This document shows positions 321-1,951 of a DNA stretch of 10,064 nt, in pieces (the stretch's first letter is position 1; each line of letters opens with the position of its first letter). The notes beneath the pieces were generated by a model. That model was not told the DNA's origin, ran no database searches, and saw only the letters and a list, made by a program, of their open reading frames with translations. Where the stretch lies: assembly GCF_050015995.1 (NCBI RefSeq), contig NZ_JBNHEP010000288.1:19547-29610 (forward strand). The letters run 5' to 3'. The DNA comes from Dapis sp. BLCC M229. Lineage in GTDB: Bacteria; Cyanobacteriota; Cyanobacteriia; Cyanobacteriales; Microcoleaceae. The position numbers and the translations under genes were made by a program.

Positions 321-800
321 TAGTCTACCTTTGTGAAAACCGCTATAAGTGCATAAATAAACCTCTCTTAAAATCCAAAATAAAATTAATTATTATTCAT
401 AAATTATCAATCTATTACCTCTTTTATAGAAATGTCTAATAGTTTCCAAATGAGTTCTATAGATACTCAAGATACTCAACAAAATAGTTGTCTGTTTTTT
501 TGATGAGATAGAATATAATTTATACCCTTCCTGGCTAAATAAAAGTATGATTTTACAGCAGTTAGGAGTCAGGACTCTCAGATTTATACTAAGTTACAAA
601 ACAATTAAACTATCAGTAATAAAGAAAGTACCAAAGAATATCCACTTAAAACAGAGAATAATGGTATAATTAGTCTGAAGCCACAACAGTATATTCATGT
701 TCTTGACAATAATACTGGTGTTACCAGACTAGAAATAGGTCCGCAAACTATTACTCTAGGAGATGCGGAAAGGTTAGTCTTACAACCAAGACCGACCATT

Positions 801-1280
801 GTGGTTCCACCTAGCTATTACTGTATAGTGGCTAATCCTGTATTAAGAGATAGTAATGGTCAACTGGTGGTAGATGAGTATGGTCAAATTAGACTTAGAT
901 ATGGCGATCGCGAAATTCGCTTTGCTCAAGACCCTTTCCCTTTATATCCAGGAGAAATACTCGAAGAAGATGTAACTCAACTACAGATAGTTGAGACAAA
1001 CCAAGCACTACGTCTCAAAGCAATACGAGATTTTACTGATACAGTCACCGTTGCAGGAGAGTCTCAAACCGTCATTCGTGCTACAGGGGATGAATGGTTA
1101 TTTGAGGGGCCGGGAACTTACACCCCAAGGGTAGAAGTTGAAGTCATAGATATAGTTACCGCTAAAATAATTAAACCTAACCAAGCCTTACGACTCCTGG
1201 CAAGACAAAATTGTATAGACCGTCAAGGTAACAGACGTAGAGCGGGGGAAAAATGGTTGGTCAGGGAAGAAGGTGACTAA
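801..1280 (+). pseudogene. MVP relic, N-terminal fragment (vault repeat domains R1-R2); ORF-track ORF with a GTG pseudo-start
   Basis: Contains HYC(I/T)VANPV, DPFPLYPGE and DEWLFEGPGTY, which are signature motifs of MVP repeat domains. The reading frame actually continues upstream to 609 into MVP N-terminal sequence. One HIP1 site lies inside (904-911). Confidence 0.8.
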
Positions 1281-1369
1281 TATTGATATTCAGTCCGTGG
1301 AGCCAGTTGATGAGGAGACGTTGAAGAGTTTACAGAAGTCGGTACAACTAGCAATTCAAATTACTACTG

Positions 1370-1951
1370 ATGCTCAGGAAGCTGCTGCCTGCCCGTCGAG
1401 ATGCTGAAAGAATTGAACAGGAGGCTAAGGCGAGGTTGGACAGGCAGATAATTGTAGACAGGGGTGCTTCGGAAGTAGAGCGGAAACAATTATTGGAGTT
1501 AGAGGCGGAAAATGATGCTATTGAGGCGACGGGTATAGCTAGTGCTGAGGCTAGGGCGAAGGCAGAAGCGGCTCAGATTCAAGGCCAGTTAGCGGTGAAT
1601 TTGGCACAGCAGGAAGTAGAAGCAGCACGCATTTGCCATGAGGCGGAAATGGCTCAGTTGAGGGCGCGTCACGAGACTGAGTTAGCCCATCAGCAGACAC
1701 TGAATAATTTAGAGATTGAGAAGGCAAGGCAAATGGCTGAAATTACTGCCACTGAGTTTCAGCAAAAAGTGGAGGCTTTGGGGGCTGAGACAATTCAGGC
1801 GATCGCTCAAGCTGGCCCAGAAATGCAGGCCAGGTTGTTAGAGGGGCTTGGTCTTCAGAGTGTTTTGATTACTGATGGTAAGAGTCCGATTAATCTTTTT
1901 AGTACGGCTAATGGGTTGATTAATCCGAATAATGCCACAAATAAATTCTGA
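1370..1951 (+). pseudogene. MVP relic, C-terminal fragment (cap-helix coiled coil plus cap-ring). The ATG at 1370 is a fortuitous internal start created by the frameshift.
   Basis: The Ala/Glu/Gln-rich heptad region followed by GPEMQ...LITDG.SPINLF matches the MVP C-terminus. Upstream MVP-homologous sequence (QSVEPVD...[10 protein letters not shown]) is in a different frame (frame 1, 1273-1389). One HIP1 site lies inside (1799-1806). Confidence 0.8.

Follow-up and report, generated by a model that had tools for sequence, protein, structure and literature searches.

A very probable, recently inactivated pseudogene of the major vault protein in the cyanobacterium Dapis sp. BLCC M229

A fragmented vault protein homolog and its lesions

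We analysed a window of 10,064 bp (the whole stretch of DNA under study, from Dapis sp. [quoted passage not shown] The original prediction had recognised MVP here from a set of motifs and their order, and three-frame translation, Pfam searches, and matches to solved structures all agree with it: YIHVLD, YYCIVANPV, DPFPLYPGE, and DEWLFEGPGTY succeed one another in frame 3, and are followed by motifs in frame 1 and then in frame 2. The second of these motifs had been given as HYC.VANPV, which is right in position but not in its first residue, as the window reads Y and not H (this change, H69Y, was found only in the window copy). Pfam Vault (PF01505; E 1e-31, in two stretches) and Vault_2 (PF17794; E 5e-27) match window 672-1280, both above the gathering score. 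The N-terminal part aligns to residues 6-202 of the rat and mouse MVP structures in the PDB (E 6e-89); the C-terminal part, after frameshift repair, aligns without gaps to rat MVP residues 635-850 (PDB; E 2e-58), with its cap-helix coiled coil and cap-ring collinear with solved MVP structures. Local identity to vertebrate MVP had been put at about 50-60%, and the values counted against the rat protein fall in that range: 57% (113/197) for the N-terminal part and 53% (114/216) for the C-terminal part. With the Okeania MVP as a tblastn query, residues 1-221 correspond to window 612-1274 (85% identity), residues 702-740 to the frame 1 segment (100% identity), and residues 740-918 to frame 2 (92% identity); residues 222-701 are absent from the window.

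Table 1. Coordinates of the features discussed, in positions of the window
Feature	Position	Strand	Basis and remarks
Destroyed start codon, ATG to ATC	612..614	+	DNA alignments; ATG in L071, L073, L003, and L066
N-terminal MVP remnant	612..1275	+	Frame 3; ortholog codons 1-221; vault repeats R1-R3 and part of R4
Mechanical ORF, GTG start, 159 aa	801..1280	+	ORF list; inside N-terminal remnant
HIP1 octamer GCGATCGC	904..911	+	Pattern search; G-D-R-E codons
Deletion junction, 4-bp GGTG microhomology	1272..1275	+	blastn coordinates, both junction flanks
Shoulder-end/cap-helix-start segment	1273..1384	+	Frame 1; aligns to rat MVP from residue 635
Mechanical ORF, ATG start, 193 aa	1370..1951	+	ORF list; inside C-terminal remnant
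CTGC CTGC 4-bp tandem duplication	1385..1392	+	Frame 1 to 2; one copy in all relatives
C-terminal remnant	1393..1951	+	Frame 2; cap-helix coiled coil and cap-ring, rat ~675-850; stop TGA at 1949-1951
HIP1 octamer GCGATCGC	1799..1806	+	Pattern search; A-I-A-Q codons
+1 insertion, extra A	1928..1929	+	AA versus single A or G in relatives (3′-end alignments)
Tmemb_14 gene	2685..3023	-	Pfam; synteny anchor outside the putative pseudogene; after MVP in every relative
DUF815 gene	4053-5360		Pfam; follows Tmemb_14
TerB-like gene	5562-6008		Pfam
4HBT thioesterase gene	6456-6872		Pfam
AMP-binding/menE-like gene	7966-9381	-	Pfam

Although the locus had been described as a gene, it has lost its start and carries a 1259-bp frameshifting deletion, a 4-bp duplication, and a +1 insertion, which make it very probably a pseudogene. 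We read these four lesions at base resolution from alignments against up to four intact orthologs. The start region reads AAACTATGAGTAA in L071, L073, L003, and L066 (relatives introduced below) and AAACTATCAGTAA in the window, and translation of this frame from the upstream stop (606-608) as far as codon 64 gives no ATG, GTG, or TTG that could replace it. The deletion measures 1259 bp against the 865/866-aa orthologs (L071 10665-11923) and 1442 bp against Okeania SIO3I5, which has 183 extra bp; it removed ortholog residues ~222-641 (part of repeat 4, repeats 5-9, and nearly the whole shoulder domain), and its length is no multiple of 3, so that it is out of frame. The extra CTGC copy is seen in alignments with L003, L002, L071, and L073, and the extra A shifts the last ~8 codons, giving the tail NNATNKF-stop instead of (V/I)MPQ(V/I)N... 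The original prediction had hinted at fragmentation, which is indeed there, but it goes much further than the hint, with three frames, ~420 middle codons gone, and no start codon.

The deletion would have arisen by microhomology-mediated illegitimate recombination or replication slippage between two GGTG copies, and the CTGC duplication by a slipped-strand event. Homologous recombination between vault repeats was considered as the cause of the deletion and rejected, since one breakpoint falls in repeat 4 and the other in the shoulder, two domains that are not homologous, and the only sequence common to both is GGTG.

What is left is an incomplete MVP. An uninterrupted ORF of ~850-900 aa with a start codon is absent, the largest ORFs being of 159 and 193 aa. 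The full nine-repeat set, including Vault_3 (PF17795) and Vault_4 (PF17796), is likewise absent, with ~3.5 repeats left (ortholog residues 1-221); and MVP_shoulder (SPFH-like, PF11978) has no Pfam match in the window, where only the last ~12 residues of that domain survive, at 1273-1310 (the domain spans residues 536-653 in L071).

Orthologs at the same position and repeated loss of MVP

A check proposed with the original prediction was to look in related strains for an intact ortholog at the syntenic position. Such a gene, of ~2.6 kb, is present in close relatives: the 'Trichodesmium sp. MO_231.B1' MAG and Okeania sp. SIO3I5 carry syntenic orthologs of 865-926 aa. The intact orthologs are those of L071/L072 (MDJ0516634.1, 865 aa), L073 (866 aa), L003 (Okeania SIO3I5, 926 aa), and L070 (924 aa). 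Window and L071 are collinear from end to end (88-96% nucleotide identity); the genes that flank MVP in the window recur around it in L071/L072, L073, and L003 (89-96% nucleotide identity); and the gene order from Tmemb_14 on is the same in L002, L003, L071, L072, L073, and L074. The whole window is thus collinear with other Oscillatoriales assemblies, and the earlier view of a eukaryote-type MVP in a genuine cyanobacterial context holds. The MVP of L071 contains Vault, Vault_2, Vault_3, Vault_4, and MVP_shoulder, and its residues 17-855 match rat/human MVP 5-849 in a single stretch (E ~1e-293). Comparison of these loci shows that the Dapis/Okeania ancestor had a complete ~865-aa MVP gene at this position, its product being collinear with the animal protein all the way from first repeat to cap-ring.

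In the Dapis/Okeania group MVP lies between a Ser/Thr-kinase-WD40 gene and the Tmemb_14 gene. The kinase-WD40 gene is found directly upstream of MVP in this clade and in one distant cyanobacterial subclade (51-53% identical end to end). Clustering of every ORF with a length of 90 aa or more at 69 MVP loci gave no universal MVP neighbour: the large clusters come from ORFs that run antisense within MVP and from histidine kinases present in multiple copies, and the only linked neighbour gene is the kinase-WD40 gene, in a subset of the loci.

The same locus is broken in other members of the clade, each time differently. In L002, an IS605 TnpB insertion is accompanied by loss of aa 335-640 and a stop at codon 9; in L065 (Okeania hirsuta) MVP is in three pieces; in L066 two ORFs cut into it, one for a group II intron RT and one TnpB-like; and in L074 (Dapis BLCC-M126) only aa 540-597 and ~820-865 are left, in ~300 bp. 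As the surviving parts in BLCC-M126 overlap those in the window only partly, the two deletions are independent, and since four related genomes have different lesions at this locus, MVP was lost repeatedly in the clade. There may be at least five independent natural knock-outs (the window, Dapis BLCC-M126, Okeania hirsuta, Okeania SIO2F4, and a metagenome relative). MVP is thus dispensable in the marine Dapis/Okeania group, where it was lost by different mutational routes, and this limits how far bacterial vault proteins can be regarded as essential. The status of the locus in the window would stay the same if a second, intact copy lay elsewhere in the BLCC-M229 genome. If bacterial MVPs build vaults, and if the kinase-WD40 protein works with them or regulates them, a natural loss-of-function series would be at hand in these strains, with which the role of the vault could be probed in a cell that has no PARP4, TEP1, or vault RNA; we consider this combined proposal unlikely.

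Age of the lesions and alternative readings

The remnant evolves much like the intact genes. Pairwise dN/dS between the window remnant and its relatives is 0.15-0.21; the window-specific changes comprise 31 synonymous and 23 non-synonymous ones (omega ~0.22, from these small counts), and omega on the window branch does not exceed that of the intact Okeania branch (0.28). There are no extra in-frame stops in the remnant, and relaxed selection (dN/dS approaching 1) is not seen in it, omega being ~0.2 and similar to that of the intact branches. A dN/dS of ~0.2 in a broken copy indicates that the inactivation was probably recent; as there is no relaxation, the pseudogene call is based on the structural lesions alone. 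We are highly confident that the segment 612-1951 represents a cyanobacterial MVP gene that became a pseudogene recently. The ancestral protein, by analogy with eukaryotic MVP, presumably self-assembled into a vault-like shell. No functional shell protein could be made from the remnant, because it is spread over three frames, has no start codon, and lacks the barrel body and the shoulder; assembly of a vault shell (39-mer half-vaults) by the remnant as encoded is impossible.

Both of the largest residual ORFs are labelled as hypothetical proteins in GenBank, not as pseudogene: exact-sequence look-up gave MGD1704511.1 (Dapis sp. BLCC M229) for the 159-aa ORF and MGD1704512.1 / WP_426591104.1 for the 193-aa ORF. 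The practical result is an annotation correction, with two 'hypothetical proteins' of Dapis brunnea BLCC-M229 being fragments of one MVP pseudogene. The label raises the alternative that one of these ORFs is functional, either the 159-aa one (repeats 2-3) or the 193-aa one (cap-helix and cap-ring), for example in a coiled-coil 'cap-only' assembly. Both are open and annotated as proteins, the remnant has a low dN/dS, and the cap-helix domain is said to drive oligomerisation of eukaryotic MVP (reportedly by Tanaka et al. 2009). Recent inactivation explains the low dN/dS equally well, however, since it is no lower than on intact branches, and the limits of both ORFs were made by the lesions themselves: the first ends at a stop induced by the deletion (1278-1280), and the second begins at a wrong-frame ATG upstream of the 4-bp duplication. 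The broken relatives retain other pieces, and BLCC-M126 does not have the same ORF boundaries, so no truncated form of MVP is conserved; nor did a promoter/terminator scan of 300-2300 give any signal above the shuffled background. We regard a function for either ORF as very unlikely.

Could the lesions be assembly or sequencing artefacts, with an intact MVP gene in the real genome? The sequence comes from the data of one strain, the 24-mer across the deletion junction had 0 matches in JGI metagenomes, and long-read assemblies commonly contain small indel errors. Against this, the Logan assembly SRR33627862, from a separate assembler run, is 100% identical over 321-2297 and covers all four lesions, although it and the GenBank assembly may share reads, so that the confirmation is not fully independent. 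The lesions also do not look like errors: a 4-bp tandem duplication and an A in a non-homopolymer context are unlike the typical homopolymer errors, the change in the start codon is a substitution, and the deletion junction is clean, with its 4-bp microhomology. In addition, the same gene is independently disrupted in four related genomes, making decay at the MVP locus the norm in this clade. An artefact is scarcely credible on this evidence.

A pattern search found four HIP1 sites in the window, where 0.01 are expected. The site in the G-D-R-E codons is at the same position in six other cyanobacterial MVP genes, and the site in the A-I-A-Q codons is at the homologous position in ~33 cyanobacterial MVP genes from many genera, so it was inherited with the gene. 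The two octamers inside the remnant had been taken as a sign of long residence in this genome; they are present as predicted, but they do not show that, and the inherited A-I-A-Q site instead speaks for a long residence of MVP in the phylum.

That the remnant is a eukaryotic contaminant, or came very recently from an animal or protist, has a negligible probability: the 53-57% identity to animal MVP and the GC3 of the remnant (0.26 in the N-terminal and 0.45 in the C-terminal part, against 0.19-0.22 in the neighbouring genes) could be quoted in its favour, but it is refuted by synteny (other Oscillatoriales have orthologs 85-93% identical to the remnant in this chromosomal position) and by nesting among cyanobacterial sequences, with a distance tree grouping the remnant with Okeania inside a purely prokaryotic clade. 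HIP1 sites common to many cyanobacterial MVP genes, and the cyanobacterial phylloquinone-pathway-type and other genes that flank the remnant on its contig, also count against it. That neighbor-joining tree was built from 207 N-terminal residues with no bootstrap and midpoint rooting, and we do not read from it whether MVP passed from bacteria to eukaryotes or the other way.

Comparison with known vault proteins

Eukaryote-like MVPs in cyanobacteria have been described before (Daly et al., 2013, PMC3762200; Sokolskyi, 2019, bioRxiv 10.1101/872010), and carry the label 'colicin uptake protein' at NCBI but 'major vault protein' at JGI. Among them are F4Y3B4 of Moorena producens/Lyngbya majuscula, K9TKX8 of Oscillatoria acuminata, and K9WB38 of Allocoleopsis/Microcoleus PCC 7113. 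The remnant belongs to the same family and clade (its N-terminal part is 69-86% identical to them), has HIP1 sites in common with them, and occupies the orthologous position of the MVPs of Okeania and 'Trichodesmium MO_231.B1'. Unlike these proteins, which are intact (~865-930 aa, with nine repeats, shoulder, cap-helix, and cap-ring), it has no start codon, has lost ~420 central codons, and contains two further frameshifts. It is a new, decayed copy in an MVP family already known from filamentous cyanobacteria and, being a dead copy of a family already reported there, is of little importance in itself.

The high identity to animal MVP had been singled out as the peculiarity of this locus, but it is common to the whole prokaryotic clade and has been published since 2013. 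Bacterial MVPs had also been called rare, which is true only in a relative sense: a motif-restricted scan found the high-identity type in 67 genomes among 185,579 species genomes, and the protein clusters that match at E<=1e-20 number over 2,600. (The matches of our initial protein search were all of at most 361 aa, and the full-length relatives came from the full-length Okeania protein as query.) The members in our comparison set include many Oscillatoriales and Nostocales as well as giant sulfur bacteria (Thiomargarita, Parabeggiatoa) and Chloroflexota of filamentous form, which suggests that the eukaryote-like clade is wider than 'a few bacteria'; its width bears on the origin of the eukaryotic vault.

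With eukaryotic MVP (rat, mouse, and human; PDB 4V60/4HL8, 3GF5, and 7PKZ among others) the remnant shares collinear repeat, cap-helix, and cap-ring regions, whereas it has a prokaryotic host and is a non-functional copy. The eukaryotic vault ribonucleoprotein consists of MVP, PARP4, TEP1, and vault RNA; searches of the whole window with Rfam (gathering thresholds) and ARAGORN gave no RNA family, vault RNA, or tRNA, and no PARP4-like or TEP1-like neighbour clusters were found in the gene neighbourhoods of the 69 prokaryotic MVP loci. The literature searched holds no report of vault particle formation by a bacterial MVP.

More distant MVP-like or SPFH (band-7) proteins are known from Myxococcales, Cytophagales, and Herpetosiphon, and MVP homologues from Asgard archaea; they have an architecture of repeats, shoulder, and coiled coil (only five repeats in the Asgard homologues), and are ~16-25% identical to cyanobacterial and eukaryotic MVP (PMC3762200; PMC12962969). 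The remnant, in contrast, belongs to the high-identity 'eukaryote-like' clade.

In its mode of decay the remnant resembles other unitary pseudogenes, formed through mobile elements and illegitimate recombination, in repeat-rich marine Oscillatoriales of the Trichodesmium/Okeania type: the window has a microhomology deletion, a slipped-strand duplication, and the loss of a start codon, and the sister genomes have IS605 TnpB and a group II intron. Compared with those pseudogenes, only the identity of the decaying gene is particular.

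Reading frames and lesions of the MVP remnant

Translation of window 541-1990 in three frames showed that sequence similar to major vault protein (MVP) is spread over three consecutive frames, and the ORF list at the remnant (window 612-1951) holds fragments only (see table). The motifs on which the original prediction of an MVP gene rested were all found, in the correct order, with the sole exception of HYC, which reads YYC in the window (H69Y, a window-specific substitution). The N part of the remnant matched Pfam Vault (E 1e-31) and Vault_2 (E 5e-27); the Pfam search with the C part returned no family. 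Among solved structures, the N part matched residues 6-202 of mouse, rat and human MVP (E 6e-89), and the C part, once its 4-bp insertion was taken out, matched rat MVP 635-850 without gaps (E 2e-58). Identity was counted as 57% (113/197) and 53% (114/216), respectively, so the 50-60% given beforehand was right. The strain whose GenBank proteins match two of the ORFs exactly, on a contig of 119,654 bp, is Dapis brunnea BLCC-M229 (taxid 3400188; Oscillatoriales, Microcoleaceae). Window 321-2297 recurs, with 100% identity, in a Logan assembly of SRR33627862.

The proposed translation searches bear out 'MVP gene in a cyanobacterium' as to the family, but with its start loss, a deletion and frameshifts the locus is a pseudogene. 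Where four orthologs read AAACTATGAGTAA at the start codon, the window reads AAACTATCAGTAA (612-614), and there is no in-frame alternative start after the upstream stop. The orthologs read GGGAAGAAGGTG followed by CTTATTT at the left breakpoint of the deletion and AATTTGGTGGTG followed by ACTAATATT at the right; the window reads GGGAAGAAGGTGACTAATATT across it, with the join inside the shared GGTG (1272-1275). The deletion measures 1259 bp against L071 and L073 (intact loci; see table) and 1442 bp against L003 (Okeania sp. SIO3I5), which has 183 extra bp. It covers ortholog residues ~222-641, with a length not divisible by three; by Pfam positions in L071, the remainder of repeat 4, repeats 5-9 and all but the end of the shoulder (536-653) were lost. 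In addition, there is a CTGC tandem duplication at 1385-1392, and an extra A at 1928/1929 alters the last ~8 residues. A tblastn search agrees, giving three frames with the middle of MVP missing. Recombination between vault repeats was rejected as the cause of the deletion, since its two ends fall in domains that are not homologous and have only 4 bp in common; illegitimate (microhomology-mediated) recombination or replication slippage would account for it instead.

Coordinates of the remnant, its comparison loci and neighbouring elements (window positions unless a locus, L, is named)
Feature	Position or locus	Strand	Remarks
MVP-like, frame 3	612-1277	+	...IISLKPQQYIHVLDNN...YYCIVANPV...DPFPLYPGE...GDEWLFEGPGTY...WLVREEGD*
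MVP-like, frame 1	1273-1389	+	three-frame translation
MVP-like, frame 2	~1393-1951	+	three-frame translation; closes at stop
ORF, 159 aa	801-1280	+	ORF list; exact match to GenBank MGD1704511.1 (Dapis sp. BLCC M229)
ORF, 44 aa	1273-1407	+	ORF list
ORF, 193 aa	1370-1951	+	ORF list; exact match to GenBank MGD1704512.1 (Dapis sp. BLCC M229)
Intact MVP	L071/L072		'Trichodesmium sp. MO_231.B1' MAG; MDJ0516634.1, 865 aa
Intact MVP	L073		866 aa
Intact MVP	L003		Okeania sp. SIO3I5; 926 aa
Intact MVP	L070		924 aa
Kinase-WD40, Okeania/Dapis group	L071 7327-9702; L003 2428-4809; L002 6380-8758; L065 3514-5892; L074 2914-5292
Kinase-WD40, distant subclade	L049 3374-5890; L059 3295-5832; L064 609-3128
Eukaryote-like MVP, sulfur bacteria	L047, L052, L055, L061		Thiotrichaceae, Thiomargarita, Parabeggiatoa
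Eukaryote-like MVP, Chloroflexota	L048, L053, L054, L060, L063		Anaerolineae, Chloroflexaceae, Oscillochloris
58-bp direct repeat	1-58; 266-323
MITE-like inverted repeats	2235-2259/2359-2383; 3351-3384/3577-3610
(ATAATTAA)5 microsatellite	2451-2490
Dispersed repeat, ~60-110 bp	2473-2686		other copies: L002 5409-5513, 5580-5632, 5792-5878, 9310-9369; also L003/L071
133-bp tandem array	9454-10064; L071 ~21177-22404

Intact orthologs and repeated loss

Screening one genome for each prokaryotic species gave 67 loci encoding MVP of the remnant's type; in most, the ORF runs without a break for 850-950 codons from stop to stop. The closest intact copies occupy the same chromosomal position as the remnant, which supplies the syntenic ortholog that the original prediction had proposed to look for (L071/L072, L073, L003 and L070). 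L071 is collinear with the entire window at 88-96% nucleotide identity, in the order MVP, Tmemb_14 (reverse strand), DUF815 ATPase, TerB-like, 4HBT thioesterase, AMP-binding/menE-like (reverse strand) and the 133-bp tandem array. Residues 17-855 of the L071 protein align in a single stretch to rat/human MVP 5-849 (E ~1e-293), and it contains the Vault, Vault_2, Vault_3, Vault_4 and MVP_shoulder domains, which indicates that the ancestral gene encoded a complete MVP. The Okeania sp. SIO3I5 protein has ~61 residues more than the 865-aa orthologs (L003 ~6960-7140, residues ~335-395), including a near-duplicate of GTKEVRQG(R/K)TSFF and then an acidic run; the gene is otherwise intact but has an internal duplication or insertion here, which keeps the frame.

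A Ser/Thr kinase-WD40 gene (~790-845 aa) lies directly 5′ of MVP in the same orientation, both in the Okeania/Dapis group and in a distant cyanobacterial MVP subclade. The two sets look orthologous, since they are 51-53% identical end to end, and kinase-WD40 and MVP may be a two-gene module that has been conserved. The expected end of the kinase gene falls just 5′ of the window.

In relatives, the MVP locus is damaged in different ways. In L002 (a JGI metagenome), an IS605-type TnpB gene (10894-12093; OrfB_IS605/Cas12f-like TNB) is inserted, residues 335-640 are gone and codon 9 is a stop; in Okeania hirsuta (L065), MVP is in three pieces with internal losses; in Okeania sp. SIO2F4 (L066), it is frameshifted and cut after residue ~369, where an ORF for a group II intron reverse transcriptase and then a TnpB-like zinc-ribbon ORF follow (1257-2557). 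In Dapis BLCC-M126 (L074), all that is left between kinase-WD40 and Tmemb_14 is residues 540-597 and ~820-865. Because M126 and the source strain M229 each keep pieces that the other lost, their deletions are independent. Outside the Okeania/Dapis clade, the genes of Moorena bouillonii (L039) and L067 likewise seem to be broken up.

The dN/dS of the remnant against L003 or L002 is 0.15-0.21 (Nei-Gojobori); the changes confined to the window lineage comprise 31 synonymous and 23 non-synonymous ones (omega ~0.22), the intact Okeania branch has an omega of 0.28, and the remnant has no further in-frame stops. The low ratios and the lack of further stops indicate that the gene was under purifying selection for most of its divergence (dS ~0.25-0.3) and was disabled recently.

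Several small elements surround the locus. 5′ of the pseudogene lies the 58-bp direct repeat (98% identical, copies 265 bp apart). L071 lacks ~300 bp that the window has in this region (122-422), and the break of the Logan contig at 321 points to a repeated element, or else to a small duplication or insertion. The dispersed repeat follows the microsatellite. The tandem array (at least 4.6 copies, 93% matches) is intergenic, beyond the menE-like gene, and continues past the window end; it had no ORF and no Rfam match, and in L071 it lies between menE and menC.

HIP1 sites and relation to known MVPs

The window contains four HIP1 octamers (0.01 expected), of which those at 904-911 and 1799-1806 lie in the remnant. 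The original prediction took these two, which are indeed present, as a sign of long residence in this genome. However, the A-I-A-Q site is found at the homologous position in ~33 cyanobacterial MVP genes from many genera, and the G-D-R-E site in six, so the sites were inherited along with the gene; they signal long residence in cyanobacteria generally, not specifically in M229. GC3 of the remnant (N part 0.26, C part 0.45) is clearly above that of the five neighbouring genes (2685-9381; 0.19-0.22), and the intact L071 MVP has 0.32 versus 0.15 for its upstream kinase. Amino-acid or codon bias of the Ala/Glu/Gln/Arg-rich coiled coil is one possible explanation, and incomplete amelioration is another.

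The very high identity to animal MVP, singled out beforehand as the interesting part, is a known property of the whole prokaryotic clade: Daly et al. (2013; PMC3762200) described cyanobacterial homologs ~54% identical to rat MVP and discussed transfer from eukaryotes. Sokolskyi (2019; bioRxiv 10.1101/872010) argued for the opposite direction and noted a link to gliding filamentous bacteria, and in a preprint from 2023, cyanobacterial MVPs came out at the base of the eukaryotic cluster. Intact genes are named 'colicin uptake protein' by NCBI and 'major vault protein' by JGI. Our literature search turned up no description of vault particles in bacteria, nor any paper that mentions MVP in Thiomargarita, Beggiatoa or Okeania. 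A distance tree built from 207 N-terminal residues (no support values, arbitrary root) places the window as sister to Okeania and all prokaryotic MVPs (cyanobacteria, Thiomargarita/Parabeggiatoa, Chloroflexota) in one group.

Beyond cyanobacteria, full-length eukaryote-like MVPs with 63-69% identity to the window's N part are also encoded by giant or filamentous sulfur bacteria and by filamentous Chloroflexota; we found no paper mentioning them there. The L054 gene (Anaerolineales) has a HIP1 octamer at its AIAQ/AIAL codons, a hint that the donor was cyanobacterial. On contig L011 (JBLNEP010000122.1), which bears the label Actinomycetota bacterium MAG69, lies a gene for a cyanobacterial-type MVP sharing 72% identity with the window; three HIP1 sites are in the gene and six in its flanks, and it groups in the tree with Phormidium and Aerosakkonema, so L011 is probably a cyanobacterial contig put in the wrong bin.

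The most useful by-products are the repeated loss of MVP in the clade and the wider host range of eukaryote-like MVPs. The locus itself is a recently decayed pseudogene of low to moderate interest, a dead member of an MVP family already known in cyanobacteria.
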